From Minisyncoccota bacterium (GTDB taxonomy: Bacteria; Patescibacteriota; Minisyncoccia; Phycocordibacterales; UBA9973), in assembly GCA_036169935.1 (NCBI GenBank), contig JAVHOH010000060.1, positions 1 to 31,073 on the forward strand: a DNA stretch of 31,073 bases, given 5' to 3'. Every line of letters starts with the position of its first letter. Position 1 is the first letter of the stretch. Positions 19,078 through 24,511 of this stretch are shown in pieces. Position numbers and translations under genes: made by a program. The notes under the pieces are model-generated. The model saw only the letters and a program-made list of their open reading frames with translations. It was not told the DNA's origin and did no database searches.

Positions 19078-19485
19078 ATGAATAAAAATGCAAAAATATT
19101 TATTTTAATAATTGGTCTTTTAATTTTAGGCACTGTCGCTACAGTGTTGCTTCAGTCCAATAGCACGCCAGCTGGACCCGGCAAGTATGATACTTTCGCA
19201 CAGTGCTTGAAGGATAAAGGTGCGGTTTTTTACGGAGCCTTTTGGTGTCCGCATTGCCAAGCACAGAAAAAGCTTTTTGGATCTTCTGCTAAACTTTTGC
19301 CCTACGTTGAATGTTCTACGGCTGATGGGACTGGGCAATTACAAGTATGCAAAGATAAAAATATTACGGGTTACCCGACCTGGATATTGGCAGATGGTAC
19401 GCTAGTTCCCGATGATTCTCCGGATGGAGCTGGGGTGAAGCTTGAAACCTTGGCTGCGAAAACTTCTTGTGTTTTACTTCAATAA
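19078..19485 (+). CDS. Membrane-anchored thioredoxin-like oxidase (VKOR-partner type)
   Basis: N-terminal TM; FYGAFWCPHCQAQK; YVEC...C...ITGYPTW. Confidence 0.8.
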   Translation: MNKNAKIFILIIGLLILGTVATVLLQSNSTPAGPGKYDTFAQCLKDKGAVFYGAFWCPHCQAQKKLFGSSAKLLPYVECSTADGTGQLQVCKDKNITGYPTWILADGTLVPDDSPDGAGVKLETLAAKTSCVLLQ

Positions 19486-19490
19486 CTTTA

Positions 19491-20045
19491 ATGAATTTAA
19501 ACGCTATTTATTTTCTAAATCTGTTTCTCGGCTCGGGGGCGATTCTTCTCCAGATTTTTTCTGTTGTAGCGCTTTTCTTGCTTTTTTTTAGAAATAAAGA
19601 AAATAGTAGAAATTTTTATTTAGACTTTGTTGATAAACATTTTCTGCCGATTAGTTTTTTGCTTGCCTTATTTGCTTCAATTTTTCCTTTGGTTTACTCT
19701 GAAATTATCCATTTTCCTCCGTGTGTCTTATGCTGGTGGCAAAGAGTTTTTATGTTTCCTTTAGTCTTGATGTTCGGTGTTGCTCTTTGGGATAAAGATA
19801 GGAGGGTAATTCGTTATGTGTTGCCTTTGCTTTGTGCCGGTTTTCTCGTTTCTGTTTATCAAAACTTTTTCTATTACTTCGGAGAAAAATCAAATGTACC
19901 TTGCGATGCGTCTGGTGTATCTTGCTATCAGCATTTAGTTTCTGTCTTTGGCGGATATATCTCAATCCCAATGCTCGCGCTCACGGTCTTTTTTGTTCTT
20001 TTGACTTTGCTGGCTGTGGCTCATTTTTACAAAAAAGAAGTATAA
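19491..20045 (+). CDS. dsbB: Disulfide bond formation protein B (DsbB/BdbC family)
   Basis: PPCVLCWWQRVFMFP; second Cys pair PCDASGVSC; GYISIPML. ATG 19491 preferred to TTG 19467. Confidence 0.85.
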   Translation: MNLNAIYFLNLFLGSGAILLQIFSVVALFLLFFRNKENSRNFYLDFVDKHFLPISFLLALFASIFPLVYSEIIHFPPCVLCWWQRVFMFPLVLMFGVALWDKDRRVIRYVLPLLCAGFLVSVYQNFFYYFGEKSNVPCDASGVSCYQHLVSVFGGYISIPMLALTVFFVLLTLLAVAHFYKKEV

Positions 20046-20296: not shown

Positions 20297-20362
20297 ATGG
20301 GAAAAGGAAACAACGCATATCGAAAGGATGTGAAGAAACCAAAAAAGGCCAAGAAGAAATAA
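20297..20362 (+). CDS. Putative 21-aa Lys-rich microprotein
   Basis: MGKGNNAYRKDVKKPKKAKKK*; stop is 3 nt before the next ATG. Confidence 0.45.
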   Translation: MGKGNNAYRKDVKKPKKAKKK

Positions 20363-20365
20363 AGA

Positions 20366-20974
20366 ATGCTTGGTTTTACCAAAAAAGAAAAAAAGTTATT
20401 GCAAAAACTAAATACTCCCGCCAAGGTGCAGGATTTTATCAATGGAATTCCTTTTAATTTTGAGAAAAATGGAGAAACGTTAAAATCGCCGATTTTAACG
20501 TTAAGAGCACAAAATGTCCATTGTTTTGAAGGAGCGCTTCTGGGGGCTTATATGCTTTCTTTGCACGGTTTTATGCCTTATGTGATGCACTTAAAGGCGA
20601 CAAAGGGGGATTATGATCATGTCATAGCTCCGTTCAAAATTGGTAAATTTTGGGGTGCGCTTTCCAAGACCAATCATGCAGTTCTGCGCTATCGTGAGCC
20701 GGTTTATAAAGATATTCACGAGCTTGCATTATCTTATTTTCATGAATATTTTTTAGATAATGGACAGAAAACCTTACGGCAATATTCCAAACTTCTTAAT
20801 TTAAATACTTTTGAAAATTGGGCGACCCAAGAAGGCAACCTATGGGAGATAGATAAAAAATTAGATAAAGTAAAACATTACGATATCGTACCTAAAACGC
20901 ATATCAAGAATCTTCGCAAGGCCGATAAGATAGAAATAGAAGCTGGTAAGATTGTTGAATTTAAAAGATACTAA
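20366..20974 (+). CDS. Conserved hypothetical protein, possible transglutaminase/papain-like Cys-His fold
   Basis: LNTPAKVQDF; HCFEGALL; DHVIAPF; WGALSKTN; LRYREPVY; SYFHEY. Confidence 0.7.
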   Translation: MLGFTKKEKKLLQKLNTPAKVQDFINGIPFNFEKNGETLKSPILTLRAQNVHCFEGALLGAYMLSLHGFMPYVMHLKATKGDYDHVIAPFKIGKFWGALSKTNHAVLRYREPVYKDIHELALSYFHEYFLDNGQKTLRQYSKLLNLNTFENWATQEGNLWEIDKKLDKVKHYDIVPKTHIKNLRKADKIEIEAGKIVEFKRY

Positions 20975-22739
20975 ATATTTTATCCCAAAATTTACTCCAC
21001 CAATTTTTCTTTGGAGTTTCTGGCTTGATTTTTGTCGGAGAGGGGATGATAGCATTTATCACTGATGCCGTGTTTTGATTGGTTAAGTTTTCTAATTTTG
21101 GTTTTGTTTTTATTGCAATTTTTTGTGCAGATTTTTTTTGTATTACAGCCATAACAGGCATTATAGGTTTTTCAAACTTTTGCATTATTTGATTCCAGGT
21201 TTTTTCAGATAAGGCTGAGATGACATACGCAGTTTCCCAAATTTTATTGTTCAAAATTTCATTTTTTATTCCGCCGTCAGTGTCCTGCATTGTTGTTAAG
21301 TAATCAAGAGGAGTATTCTCACCCTTTTTCCAATCTTCTGTTTTTTCGCCTAATGCTCTAATGCCTTCTAATGCCCAAGCGGTAGACGATGTGTTGCTCC
21401 AACCACCATTATCTTTTTGATTTTGTTTTAAATAATTTTTTGCTTTTATCAAATTTTCCCGTACCCCTGGAATACGGGAAAAATCCGATAAAGATTCTAT
21501 AGCGGCGCCAGTCATATCCGCAGACTCATCCCAAGAACCATTATCTTTTTGTTTGCTTAAAATAAAAGAGGTATCATCTTTTATTATTTTATCGTCTTGT
21601 GTGTATCCTGCGTTTTGGAGAACTATTAGGGCAAAAATATCATCATTATCTTCATTTATATCACCAAATTGTTTGTCGTCAAAGGTGCTTGTAATTTTTT
21701 TAATATAATTTACGCCGTTAGCATCATCATACGGATTAATTCCCAGAGTCATTAATGTCATTGCATGTCTTTCGTAGTCCGTCAAAAGAGCGCTGGGTGT
21801 GTTAGATCCTTCGAAATATTTAATCAATTTTTGCATACTATCCGGATAACCTCCGGAGGCTAACGCTATCGCTGTCCAGTCGGTATAAAGATTTTCACCA
21901 AAAGAACCATCACTTTTTTGTTGCGCAATTAAAAAATCAAAAGCTTTTTTTAAATCAAATTTTGCTTTTATTGCAGGAATGATTGGGGGAACATAATATG
22001 ATCCACCATGTCCGCTATCGGTCACTGGCGCTGGTGGGGGAGTGGGAAGAGGTGAAACCTCTATACTCACACTGTTTGATGGAACATATAATGTTTTATT
22101 TCCGACAGCAGTAAGTGACCCTGAAGTATCCAAAACAATGGAACAAGTTCCGTCGGTAATAGTCGTGCAAGATTGAGCTCCTAGCGTGATTATAGTCCCT
22201 AGTGATGGTGTCCAAATCATATTATAATTTGCATCAAAAGTACTTTCTTCTTCTGCGGTAAATGTTATTGTATCGCCTATTGTGCCAGAATTTTTTGAAG
22301 CCGAGATTCGTAATGGATAAGAATTATAAGTTAAAAGAAGTTCGTCGTTTGCAGATGGTTGATATTGATTAAGCGCATCGCTTCCATGTCCGTAAGTTAA
22401 ATTAACAAAATAACCCCAAGATTTTGAAAAATCGGGAGTAGTTTTATATCCGCCCAATTCATCTAACCAGCCACTTGGCGTATATTTCCATGTCCATGTA
22501 TTTGATAACTTGGATTGTTCAACGGCACACTTGCCATTTATAGTAAATTGTAGAGGATCAACTATTTCTGGAGACCCAGCGCAAGCTGTAATTATTTCAG
22601 GACCATTAAATAAAACAGTATCACCAGCATAAATTTTTAGGTTTATGGATACAGAGCTTGGTGTATCTGCGTACGCAATGTTTTTTATGCCTATTAATAA
22701 TAGTGACAAAACAAATAAAATTTTAATAACTTTTTTCAT
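20961..22739 (-). CDS. Exported multidomain protein: DUF4430-like beta domain, Ig-like domain, Pro linker, alpha/alpha-toroid (prenyltransferase-like QxxDGxW repeats), aromatic amphipathic tail; 592 aa
   Basis: Signal peptide AYA-D; SWGYFVN...DALNQY...DELLLTY; QQKSDGSFG, KQKDNGSW, NQKDNGGW, MQDTDGG; tail NWWSKFWDKIFSIF. ATG 22739 preferred to 22763. Confidence 0.8.
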   Translation of the reverse strand: MKKVIKILFVLSLLLIGIKNIAYADTPSSVSINLKIYAGDTVLFNGPEIITACAGSPEIVDPLQFTINGKCAVEQSKLSNTWTWKYTPSGWLDELGGYKTTPDFSKSWGYFVNLTYGHGSDALNQYQPSANDELLLTYNSYPLRISASKNSGTIGDTITFTAEEESTFDANYNMIWTPSLGTIITLGAQSCTTITDGTCSIVLDTSGSLTAVGNKTLYVPSNSVSIEVSPLPTPPPAPVTDSGHGGSYYVPPIIPAIKAKFDLKKAFDFLIAQQKSDGSFGENLYTDWTAIALASGGYPDSMQKLIKYFEGSNTPSALLTDYERHAMTLMTLGINPYDDANGVNYIKKITSTFDDKQFGDINEDNDDIFALIVLQNAGYTQDDKIIKDDTSFILSKQKDNGSWDESADMTGAAIESLSDFSRIPGVRENLIKAKNYLKQNQKDNGGWSNTSSTAWALEGIRALGEKTEDWKKGENTPLDYLTTMQDTDGGIKNEILNNKIWETAYVISALSEKTWNQIMQKFEKPIMPVMAVIQKKSAQKIAIKTKPKLENLTNQNTASVINAIIPSPTKIKPETPKKNWWSKFWDKIFSIF

Positions 22740-23103
22740 ATTTCCAGGAGACAACATCTCCAACTTTTATTTTATAATTTGAAACGCCGACTTGCGCCTC
22801 AACACCATTCACATAATAAATCCAATTTTCATTTCCATTATTTTTTATTCCGTTTATTGAATCAATAAATTTTCCCATTCCCGCATAATTTTTTTCTGTA
22901 AAATTTATTTTCCCTTCACTCTGCAGTTTACTCATAAAATCATAAACACTCGTTTCACCTACAATTGTATTTTTATACTCAATATTGTTTATAAGTTTTG
23001 GTACAGAAGCATGAGGAATTAGAAAAATAGTACCCAAGATAGCTATAAAAATTAATACGAATATACTTATTATTTTTTTGTTTTTAAATATAAATTTAGA
23101 CAT
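22723..23103 (-). CDS. Membrane-anchored DUF4430 (transcobalamin beta-domain-like) protein
   Basis: N-terminal TM; GMGKFIDSINGIKN...NWIYYVNGVEAQVGVSNYKIKVGDVVSWKYE. Confidence 0.85.
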   Translation of the reverse strand: MSKFIFKNKKIISIFVLIFIAILGTIFLIPHASVPKLINNIEYKNTIVGETSVYDFMSKLQSEGKINFTEKNYAGMGKFIDSINGIKNNGNENWIYYVNGVEAQVGVSNYKIKVGDVVSWKYEKSY

Positions 23104-23184
23104 AAAAAAATCCTACTTTTAGAGCAGAATTTGTGGGTCCCCAAAAATAAGAATAAGGGGAGGGATCCTGCTCGGGAAATGCGT

Positions 23185-23298
23185 GAAATGATTGGTATTC
23201 GGACTTGTCTCTGACTTTGCGTCAGAGCTTACCGTAGCGGCACTGTACTGGAATCTAACCAGTTTCCCCAATCACTTCTTTTAATTTTTAAAAGGAAC
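23185..23298 (-). ncRNA. Cobalamin riboswitch
   Basis: Minus strand reads TGATTGG-GGAA-ACTGG-TTAGATT-CCAGT-ACAGTGCCGCTACGGTAAG-CTCTGAC-GCAAA-GTCAGAG-ACAAGTCCGAATA-CCAATCA: GGGAA, T-loop P4, P5 CCGC loop, P6 and B12-box-like strand. Located upstream of a DUF4430 gene. Confidence 0.9.
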
Positions 23299-23304
23299 TT
23301 TCTT

Positions 23305-23332
23305 AGTATATACTTACTTTATATTATGTCAA
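23305..23332 (-). promoter_or_regulatory. Sigma70 promoter of the riboswitch operon
   Basis: TTGACA (23332-23327), 16 nt, TATACT (23310-23305); predicted start near 23298, at the aptamer 5' end. Confidence 0.7.
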
Positions 23333-23350
23333 AAAATGGTGTGGATAAAA

Positions 23351-23400
23351 ACTTACAGGCAAGACCTGTCTCAGGAATATTACAGGTCTTGCCTGTAAGT
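23351..23400. repeat. REP doublet (REPIN-like): perfect 19-bp inverted repeat with 12-nt spacer
   Basis: ACTTACAGGCAAGACCTGT (23351-23369) and ACAGGTCTTGCCTGTAAGT (23382-23400); each arm is itself an ACAGG-N5-CCTGT hairpin. Confidence 0.85.
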
Positions 23401-24039
23401 GAGCCATTCAAATATATCATCTTCAAAAAATTCTTTAGTTGGAAAATAATTCGGGAACATTTCACGATTTAGAATTATTTTTTCCTCTCGGTTAATACCA
23501 AGATAGTCTTGATAACTTGAGTATTTATAATCTCTTAAAAAAGCGATAGCTTGTTTCTTATTTTTTATTCCGTTTTCTTTCCACTTTGAATCTATAAGTT
23601 TGATTGGATTTAAGTGTATATAAGAAAATAAATACTTTAAATATGTATCTTTATAGGCATATTCAGATTTAAATTTTCCCTCAAATAAACTGCCAGTTCT
23701 TTTATATTTATTATTATAATACATGGAATATGCGGTAGTAAGTTTTTGCATAAATTTACTAATACTTCCATCTTCAGTTTGTGTTAAAAGAAGATGAAAA
23801 TGATTTGGCATTAAACAATATGATCCAATACCAACTAGCAGCTTTCCTCTTTTGCAATCGTATACATTATTTTTTCCAATGAATTGAATTTTAAAATTTT
23901 TCTGTCCATTTGAAATATAAAGCAGTTTTATAAAACGTTCATAATCTTTTGGGTCACGGAAAATTATTTGCTTGCTGTTTCCACGATTATAAATATGGTA
24001 ATATTCATTTGGCACGAAAGATGTTTTTCTTAAAGACAT
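23380..24039 (-). mobile_element. REP-associated tyrosine transposase (RAYT, Y1 HUH family), 219 aa
   Basis: YYHIYNRGN; YCLMPNHFHLLL (HUH); FMQKL...Y...YN.KY.RTGSLFEGKFKS; YIHLNP; YKYSSY. ATG 24039 preferred to the track start 24294, which overlaps the next gene. Confidence 0.9.
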
Positions 24040-24045
24040 TTGTTT

Positions 24046-24074
24046 ATTATATAAAAGTACAACTTTACAGGCAA
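24046..24074 (-). promoter_or_regulatory. Putative leaderless RAYT promoter whose -35 lies in the REP
   Basis: TTGCCT (24074-24069), 17 nt, TATAAT (24051-24046), 6 nt, ATG 24039. Confidence 0.55.
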
Positions 24075-24083
24075 GACCTGTAA
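24065..24083 (+). repeat. REP copy upstream of the RAYT
   Basis: TTACAGGCAAGACCTGTAA, 19/19 identical to the reverse complement of 23380-23398. Confidence 0.85.
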
Positions 24084-24091
24084 TAATTGTT

Positions 24092-24511
24092 ATGAAGAAA
24101 ACAAAAATAATGGTCTTTGGAACCTTTGATGGTTTACACAAGGGACATATAAATTTTTTTAAACAGGCAAAAAAATTCATGAAGAGTTCATTTTTAATTG
24201 TTTCAATAGCTAGAGATAAGAATGTTCTTCGTCTAAAAGGGAAATATCCGGACAAAAATGAGCAAACGAGGATGATTTTGGTAAAAAAATGCAAGTTAGT
24301 TGATAAAGTGGTTCTTTCGGGTATAAAAAATCATCTTCCTCATATTATAAAAATGTGTCCGGATATTATTGCCCTTGGTTATGACCAAAAAGCTTATGTA
24401 AAAAATTTAAAAAAAGACTTGAAAAATAAAGGTATTCTAGTTAAAGTCGTACGTTTAAAACCATATAAAGAAAAAATTTACAAAAATTACTTGCTAAAAA
24501 AGAAAAGATAA
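24092..24511 (+). CDS. Cytidylyltransferase-family nucleotidyltransferase (RibL-type FAD synthase-like)
   Basis: MVFGTFDGLHKGH (HxGH); IARD; PDIIALGYDQ. Confidence 0.8.
   Translation: MKKTKIMVFGTFDGLHKGHINFFKQAKKFMKSSFLIVSIARDKNVLRLKGKYPDKNEQTRMILVKKCKLVDKVVLSGIKNHLPHIIKMCPDIIALGYDQKAYVKNLKKDLKNKGILVKVVRLKPYKEKIYKNYLLKKKR

Follow-up and report, generated by a model that had tools for sequence, protein, structure and literature searches.

A cobalamin-riboswitch operon encoding transcobalamin-like proteins, with a predicted role in surface capture of vitamin B12, in a patescibacterial genome

We examined a window of 31,073 nucleotides from contig JAVHOH010000060.1, and coordinates below are positions in this window unless another contig is named. 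It contains a two-gene operon whose leader carries a cobalamin riboswitch and whose products are a membrane-anchored DUF4430 protein (open reading frame A, ORF A) and a secreted, transcobalamin-like multidomain protein (ORF B). The genome comprises 746.5 kb in 117 contigs, with completeness estimated at 100% and contamination at 2.7%. Its size (746 kb) and the Paceibacterota and Nomurabacteria names on homologues of its proteins fit the affiliation with the Candidate Phyla Radiation (CPR) that had been proposed for this DNA. The original prediction, made from the sequence itself, described a near-consensus TTGACA/TATACT promoter, a cobalamin aptamer, a GAGCAG/CTGCTC platform hairpin, a DUF4430 protein with a membrane anchor, an overlapping exported protein with a second DUF4430-like domain, an immunoglobulin (Ig)-like spacer and a barrel, and an operon end against a convergent gene. 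Each of these elements was recovered in our analyses, the second DUF4430-like domain at the profile level only. The features of the locus, in which all operon elements lie on the minus strand, are as follows.

23305-23332, minus strand: sigma-70-type promoter, TTGACA-16 nucleotides-TATACT, matching 11 of 12 consensus positions
23173-23316, minus strand: cobalamin riboswitch aptamer RF00174, found with the Infernal/Rfam covariance model
23122-23173, minus strand: long platform hairpin, GAGCAG.../...CUGCUC, in the minimum-energy fold
23104-23132, minus strand: alternative short hairpin (23108-23132) with a U7 tract (23104-23110), from folding and shuffles
22723-23103, minus strand: ORF A, 126 residues, an N-terminal membrane anchor and an extracytoplasmic DUF4430/transcobalamin-type beta-grasp (SLBB) domain
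20961-22739, minus strand: ORF B, 592 residues, secreted, transcobalamin-like and multidomain
20366-20974: convergent ORF, 202 residues, overlapping the end of ORF B by 14 nucleotides
23369-23355, minus strand: terminator-like hairpin of the upstream gene, just ahead of the promoter

Promoter, aptamer and expression platform

The promoter is the top-scoring site within 20300-23500, and its -10 box is invariant across the leaders of three related loci (L004, L008 and L009), which together with this leader make up four close sequences. Downstream of it, the aptamer matched RF00174 over the full model (positions 1-189) at 39.9 bits, where the gathering score is 31.5 (E 6.3e-7), and this copy is the sole cobalamin riboswitch in the whole genome. 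The aptamer is compact, with the peripheral P6 extension, which spans 59 model positions, reduced to an insert of 12 nucleotides. Its core is invariant in the three related leaders, and its peripheral hairpin varies in sequence with pairing kept, so that covariation of the kind required of a cobalamin riboswitch (clan CL00101) was found, albeit among just four close sequences.

We surveyed 20 related loci carrying the homologous gene or genes and detected a cobalamin-clan aptamer directly upstream, on the coding strand, at 17 of them (8 reaching the gathering score and a further 9 with E values from 1e-5 to 0.02). One of the other three loci ends at a contig edge, L025 gave a weak match (E 0.075) and L021 gave none. 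With 17 of the 20 loci carrying an aptamer, the association between the riboswitch and the DUF4430/barrel genes is near-universal within this sample. The related aptamers are spread over three Rfam models, RF00174, RF01482 and RF01689. Judged by these sequence comparisons, the aptamer genuinely belongs to the cobalamin riboswitch clan, and a response to corrinoids is predicted for it.

The leader can form two mutually exclusive platform hairpins, both of which are conserved among relatives. The long hairpin is part of the minimum-energy fold (-20.6 kcal/mol, z -2.3); in the three related leaders its outer stem is invariant and the pairing of its inner stem is kept via double changes. The short hairpin has 10 base pairs (-8.0 kcal/mol, z -3.5) with none of 200 shuffles equally good, and an equivalent hairpin with a tract of seven to eight U residues was present in the folds of L004 and L009 and, by eye, in L008. 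The two structures share AUUCUGCU, the 3' arm of the long hairpin, for which AGUAGGAU just downstream is the alternative partner. When formed, the short hairpin buries the AGGA Shine-Dalgarno sequence (23111-23114), immediately before the ORF A start codon (ATG at 23103). Since a short alternative hairpin with a U-tract buries the ribosome-binding site, the long hairpin is probably an anti-terminator or anti-sequestrator, and the short hairpin with its U7 tract is probably the corresponding terminator or sequestrator. That cobalamin would favour the short hairpin we infer by analogy from the usual OFF logic of such riboswitches. Inspection of the platform loops by eye found no kissing-loop complement to the aptamer loop L5 (GCCGCU).

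Two exported proteins with transcobalamin-type domains

ORF A begins with a basic N-terminus followed by a 19-residue hydrophobic segment (residues 11-29), and the protein matched PF14478 with 52.8 bits against a cut-off of 23.8, over profile positions 5-72 of 72. All of its 348 homologues carry PF14478 and, where named, come nearly throughout from Patescibacteria. In L004, L005, L008, L009, L011, L012 and L013, the barrel gene likewise follows a small ORF A-like gene. The related loci show two architectures: a split one, as here, with an anchored DUF4430 gene followed by a beta-Ig-barrel gene, and a fused DUF4430-barrel gene in more distant lineages.

The most likely start of ORF B is the ATG at 22739, giving a 17-nucleotide overlap with ORF A, and the open frame extends upstream to a TTG at 22763. 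The protein has a signal peptide, MKKVIKILFVLSLLLIGIKNIAYA followed by D, ending in AYA directly before that D. We collected 445 homologues and based alignments and profile counts on 50 members of the family; the AlphaFold2 model, built with 50 homologues, has a mean predicted local distance difference test score (pLDDT) of 83. The mature protein is divided as follows.

Residues 25-132 (22344-22667, minus strand): divergent DUF4430/SLBB-like beta domain, recognized at the profile level
Residues 133-232 (22044-22343, minus strand): all-beta sandwich spacer, Ig-like, from the strands of the model
Residues 240-254 (minus strand): flexible linker in the AlphaFold2 model
Residues 255-525 (21165-21977, minus strand): single (alpha/alpha)6 barrel, from SQHop_cyclase_C and the model
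Residues 526-592 (20964-21164, minus strand): disordered linker rich in K, P and T, then a C-terminal amphipathic helix (KKNWWSKFWDKIFSIF)

The profile of the ORF B beta domain aligned with that of the ORF A family with an hhalign probability of 93.6% (E 2.2e-7), over 43 columns only, and PF14478 itself was matched by 19 of the 50 family members at E <= 0.01 (best E 5e-7). The strands of the sandwich (133-229) were modelled at a pLDDT of about 90, and their profile matches to cohesin and Ig-like chains were weak (E 0.07-0.24); relatives of ORF B carry additional Big/DUF5011 Ig-like domains at this position.

The barrel of ORF B has sequence and structure matches to more than one kind of protein. 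Its strongest Pfam match was SQHop_cyclase_C (32.6 bits), a family matched by all 50 members, and 15 of the 50 also matched Cobalamin_bind (PF01122) at E <= 0.01, the best at 8.1e-7. ORF B itself gave no match to PF01122 in the Pfam search; the likeness lies at the level of the fold, which is common to other (alpha/alpha)6 barrels. A sequence-profile search of the PDB returned squalene-hopene cyclases only and no cobalamin binders. When the whole ORF B model was compared with the PDB by Foldseek, complement TED domains and terpene cyclases took most of the leading places and transcobalamin came at rank 40 at best; for a multidomain model this comparison is uninformative. An exhaustive VIA-align comparison of the barrel alone gave Z 21.1 for intrinsic factor (over the whole alpha domain), 19.1 for transcobalamin and 19.1 for haptocorrin. 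The barrel superposes on the animal carriers and shares its fold with the terpene cyclases.

ORF B and the animal carriers transcobalamin, intrinsic factor and haptocorrin (2bb6, 2pmv, 4kkj) consist of the same two domain types. The barrel covers their full alpha domain (Z 19-21 over 235-243 residues), and relatives of ORF B reach both PF01122 and PF14478. Unlike the animal proteins, in which the alpha domain precedes the beta domain, ORF B has the order beta-(Ig)-alpha, and an extra, separately encoded and anchored beta domain is present here. Identity to the animal carriers is 10-16%, and the ligand-contact residues are not alignable. The barrel fold alone assigns no function; the assignment of B12 binding follows from the fusion with transcobalamin-type beta-grasp domains together with the export signals and the riboswitch. 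Within the barrel, the motif D364-N-D-D367 (21639-21650), at the start of an inner helix, is conserved in 43, 49, 49 and 50 of the 50 members at its four positions; it is a candidate corrinoid-contact site.

We considered whether the barrel could instead be an enzyme, as suggested by the SQHop_cyclase_C match, by top structural matches to class II terpene cyclases (Z 23-24) and by the resemblance of the strongly conserved acidic DNDD motif to the DxDD general-acid motif. A catalytic DxDD was rejected: the DVDDTA of squalene-hopene cyclase aligns, weakly, to svDmTgA in another repeat, and the pattern D..T.A...L recurs in every repeat of the barrel. A class II terpene cyclase does not fit, as such enzymes need a two-barrel beta-gamma unit and ORF B has a single barrel (residues 255-525). 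The zinc site of protein prenyltransferases is built from Asp, Cys and His ligands. With no conserved Cys in the barrel and only a frequent His (H325, in 38 of 50 members), this site is not kept, and a prenyltransferase beta subunit does not fit either. The protein is moreover secreted, the barrel is joined to a beta-grasp domain of the transcobalamin type, and a B12 riboswitch precedes the genes at 17 of the 20 loci; an enzymatic role for the barrel is unlikely.

The tail of ORF B has a pLDDT below 50 at residues 528-578, followed by a short helix at 580-589 in the AlphaFold2 model. A motif, KK[NS]WF.[RK][LF]L[DE]KIF[SN][IV]F (residues 578-592, 20964-21008), ends most of the 50 members, with W580 invariant, and the tail may serve as an in-plane membrane anchor or docking peptide. 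The helix is shorter than normal transmembrane helices. A complex prediction for ORF B (residues 25-525) with the ORF A ectodomain (residues 38-126) returned a score of 0.00, which is evidence neither way, so that the proposed hand-off of ligand between the two proteins is without support.

A ribonucleotide reductase cluster on contig C27, and neighbouring genes

The two-gene operon contains no energy-coupling factor (ECF), BtuCD/F or BtuM component, in agreement with the part of the original prediction that found no transporter in it. That statement does not extend to the genome as a whole, where a protein with the fold of an ECF S-component ("S-like" below) is encoded on contig C27, in a cluster of three genes on one strand.

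C27 8475-9029: S-like membrane protein, 185 residues, on the same strand as the next two genes
C27 9037-11328: RTPR-type class II ribonucleotide reductase (RNR), with TIGR02505, ATP-cone, RNR_Alpha and PF21995 matches
C27 11357-11863: PduO-type adenosyltransferase, with PF01923 and TIGR00636 matches

The S-like gene lies immediately upstream of the RNR gene, and the PduO gene lies immediately downstream of it. The RNR matched TIGR02505 with 280.5 bits (E 2.5e-83), under the equivalog cut-off of 340, and PF21995 (RNR-II_ins_dom) with 30.5 bits against 27; ATP-cone and RNR_Alpha were also above their cut-offs. PduO scored 149.6 bits against 24 for PF01923 and 128.8 against 108.45 for TIGR00636. 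A class II RNR had been named as the obvious candidate user of B12, and the C27 enzyme is the single RNR detected and, of the B12 enzymes sought, the single one detected. Searches of the genome for class I RNR, class III RNR, a further RNR barrel and the B12-binding domain PF02310 found none of these. The same was true of searches for importer components (EcfT/CbiQ, FecCD/BtuC and a BacA-type ABC membrane domain) and for CobA, CobS and CbiC. Separately, one relative in the same order (G314:C1:68338-69027) encodes CobS, the cobalamin-5'-phosphate synthase, at 159 bits, and from this sequence match may be able to complete cobinamide; the other 20 searched relatives are without it.

The model of the S-like protein has six helices (pLDDT 86, pTM 0.80), and the best 23 Foldseek matches in the PDB were all ECF S-components, with TM-scores up to 0.65/0.73. 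TM-scores were 0.59/0.60 for BtuM and 0.45/0.51 for CbrT. In the S-like family, for which we assembled 35 members, PF07155 was matched by 22, DUF6580 (PF20221) by 9 and PF12822 by 1. A Pfam search of the genome for DUF6580 returned nothing, and control genomes were likewise silent, so this search is uninformative.

We followed the distribution of these genes through 301 sampled genomes of the same class. The barrel gene occurs in 19, including all five other sampled members of the family to which this genome belongs and a scatter elsewhere, and the S-like gene occurs in 13; the two are found together in 9 genomes, against a chance expectation of about 0.8. Ten genomes have both the S-like gene and this RNR, and the two genes are adjacent in all ten. 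In GCA_041671665.1, the RNR, the S-like gene, the riboswitch, the DUF4430 gene and the barrel gene are contiguous in that order. In several genomes (G093, G132, G260, G274 and G046), the class II RNR match fell in two pieces within one open frame of 1,120-1,300 residues, split near query residue 460, as would be expected from an insertion, for instance an intein.

Several other genes adjoin the two regions. Upstream of the operon, 23380-24294 (minus strand) encodes a 304-residue protein of the IS200/Y1 type, like REP-associated tyrosine transposases (PF01797 36.4 bits; NF047646 38.7 bits, under the cut-off). On the plus strand, 19078-20045 encodes a thioredoxin-like secreted protein (CPHC) and then a DsbB-like membrane protein, a neighbourhood also seen in L004 and L005; the pair is consistent with disulfide formation in exported proteins. 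Divergently upstream of the C27 cluster (G000:C27:7808-8302; L006 798-1292, minus strand) lies a gene for a 164-residue membrane protein resembling DoxD/DoxX (E 7e-4, a match under the Pfam cut-off).

Predicted B12 scavenging, its precedents and alternatives

We propose that the operon provides the surface-capture half of a pathway for scavenging vitamin B12 in a B12-auxotrophic Patescibacterium, and we consider it likely that its function is the capture of B12 at the surface under riboswitch control. At low intracellular cobalamin, the long hairpin would form and both genes would be transcribed and translated; cobalamin bound to the aptamer would lead to the short hairpin with its U-tract, stopping transcription, hiding the ribosome-binding site, or both. 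ORF A, tethered by its N-terminal helix, would display one transcobalamin-type beta-grasp domain. ORF B would be secreted with the second beta-grasp domain, the spacer and the barrel, and would probably be held at the cell by its amphipathic tail. The corrinoid would be clamped as in transcobalamin, between the mouth of the barrel and whichever beta-grasp domain closes it. Captured B12 would then pass to the solitary S-component-fold protein of C27, no EcfT having been found in the genome, and for this importer step alone we see a slightly better than even chance. Once in the cytoplasm, B12 would be adenosylated by the adjacent PduO and used by the adjacent class II RNR.

In kind, this system is not new: the operon is a further, well-supported instance of one that was predicted in 2007. 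Burroughs et al. (2007; PMC1796856) defined a transcobalamin-like SLBB clade and predicted scavenging of B12 or its precursors by extracellular proteins that join SLBB domains to alpha/alpha-toroids, in hosts without B12 synthesis and generally from genes beside CbiO/CbiQ. The beta-then-alpha order and the second beta-domain protein, which the original prediction had put forward as new, were both already described in that study. Our operon shares with those systems the signal peptide, the fusion of SLBB to the toroid, the C-terminal position of the toroid (as in their Bacillus example), the inserted Ig-fold domains, the second SLBB protein in the operon and a host without B12 synthesis. It differs in that CbiO/CbiQ are absent from the operon and no EcfT/CbiQ was found in the genome, in that the host belongs to the Patescibacteria whereas theirs were low-GC Gram-positives, and in that ORF B ends in an amphipathic tail in place of an LPXTG-type anchor. 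It also differs in its control by a riboswitch, a word that occurs nowhere in PMC1796856. In the literature searched on bacterial transcobalamin homologues, on DUF6580 and on cobalamin and RNR in Patescibacteria, we found no experimental study of these proteins.

The C27 cluster has a precedent in the nrdJ-cbrS-cbrT-pduO cluster of Lactobacillus delbrueckii, whose genomic context was used to assign CbrT (PMC5997447). As in that B12 auxotroph, an S-component-fold protein here stands beside an adenosylcobalamin-dependent RNR and PduO. CbrT works with an ECF module, whereas none was found here, and the S-like protein matches CbrT poorly; the account of the CbrT cluster consulted here mentions no transcobalamin-like surface proteins. 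BtuM of Thiobacillus denitrificans is a solitary B12 transporter of the S-component type, in which Cys80 is an essential cobalt ligand and whose homologues are mostly proteobacterial (PMC6072759). The C27 protein resembles BtuM in its fold and in that no ECF module accompanies it in the genome. Its family has no conserved cysteine, which places it outside the BtuM family, and no sequence similarity was detected. A functional analogue of ORF A and ORF B is BtuG of Bacteroides, which is a beta-propeller, and so of unrelated fold, and works with the outer-membrane transporter BtuB. The analogy lies in surface capture of B12 and in riboswitch-linked uptake loci (PMC6143338).

Several observations weigh against the proposed route. 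The roles given here to the members of both protein families are predictions. In the minimum-energy fold, P1 of the aptamer and the long hairpin are compatible, which leaves unexplained how the ligand signal reaches the platform. The barrel fold is generic, with terpene cyclases at Z 21-24 (the top one at 23.8, above intrinsic factor) and GH76 and other glycoside hydrolases at Z 18-19, and this ORF B itself falls below the Pfam thresholds for both DUF4430 and Cobalamin_bind. The sampled genomes are mutually related, so that the co-occurrence counts are not independent. Seven of the 19 barrel-gene genomes (G047, G067, G203, G224, G238, G282 and G294) are without this RNR, and 10 of the 19 are without an S-like homologue, as far as these queries detect them. 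The S-like gene lies outside riboswitch control, and the protein of this genome gave no Pfam or NCBIfam match. Structurally it is nearer to RibU, FolT and ThiT than to BtuM or CbrT, and no invariant or near-invariant Cys occurs among the 35 family members, so that the conserved cysteine of BtuM is lacking.

Much of this bears on the importer, and the surface module could be right with B12 entering through some unrecognised transporter; the S-like protein would then serve as a receptor or transport some other substrate required close to the RNR. The best Pfam match of the S-like family is indeed a riboflavin S-component model (22 of 35) and not that of a B12 family, and PanT joins RibU, FolT and ThiT among its closest structures. 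This RNR occurs in 71 genomes, of which 61 are without the S-like gene, as are the 10 barrel-gene genomes counted above. The S-component fold also occurs in receptors (PMC11109136). S-components have, however, diverged too far for their fold to reveal the substrate, and context favours B12: the S-like gene adjoins the adenosylcobalamin-dependent RNR in all ten sampled genomes that have both, shares its cluster in this genome with PduO, and in GCA_041671665.1 forms an unbroken stretch with the riboswitch operon. No other known type of B12 importer was found in the genome, and we regard a different importer as unlikely.

A module that sequesters or stores corrinoids at the surface, to compete with neighbouring cells or the host or to act as a buffer, would need no import; the original prediction had named sequestration alongside capture. 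Such a role would suit an operon without a transporter gene and with regulation separate from that of the C27 cluster, and surface binders of very high affinity for B12 exist in other bacteria (BtuG, PMC6143338). Repression by B12 suits acquisition better, as a store or weapon would not obviously be switched off in replete cells, and the genome combines a B12-dependent RNR as its only one with a lack of B12 synthesis. The contiguity of the operon with genes for use and import in GCA_041671665.1 also argues for uptake, and we find sequestration improbable.

The ligand could also be another corrinoid (cobinamide or another cobamide) or another tetrapyrrole, with the riboswitch reporting only the end product. 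Burroughs et al. left open "B12 or its precursors" (PMC1796856), ECF-CbrT also transports cobinamide (PMC5997447), and the spread of the relatives' aptamers over three Rfam models means that ligand preference may vary. This genome could not complete cobinamide, however: with CobS and CbiC lacking, a complete cobamide must be imported for the adenosylcobalamin-dependent RNR, and a ligand other than B12 has little probability in our estimation. Least credible, and in our judgement very improbable in light of the single barrel and its missing active sites, is that the barrel acts as an enzyme (like a terpene cyclase or prenyltransferase, or as a glycan-active (alpha/alpha)6 protein) with only an indirect link to corrinoids.

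If every step of the proposed B12 capture and import held jointly, the bacterium would have an ATP-independent B12 relay with no known cultured counterpart, running from a secreted clamp docked by its tail, through an anchored beta-grasp domain, to a solitary DUF6580-related S-fold importer without a cysteine ligand, and bacterial clamps of this kind would be the source of animal transcobalamin. As a whole, this picture is possible but doubtful.

Cofactor acquisition in the abundant, uncultured bacteria of the CPR is little understood. Since the only RNR found in this genome needs adenosylcobalamin, which the genome cannot make, DNA synthesis in this bacterium would depend on the uptake route described here. 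ORF A and ORF B would be bacterial equivalents of the B12 carriers of humans and would allow a direct test of the 2007 idea that animals obtained transcobalamin from bacteria, and the S-component-fold protein of C27 may represent a third kind of solitary vitamin importer.

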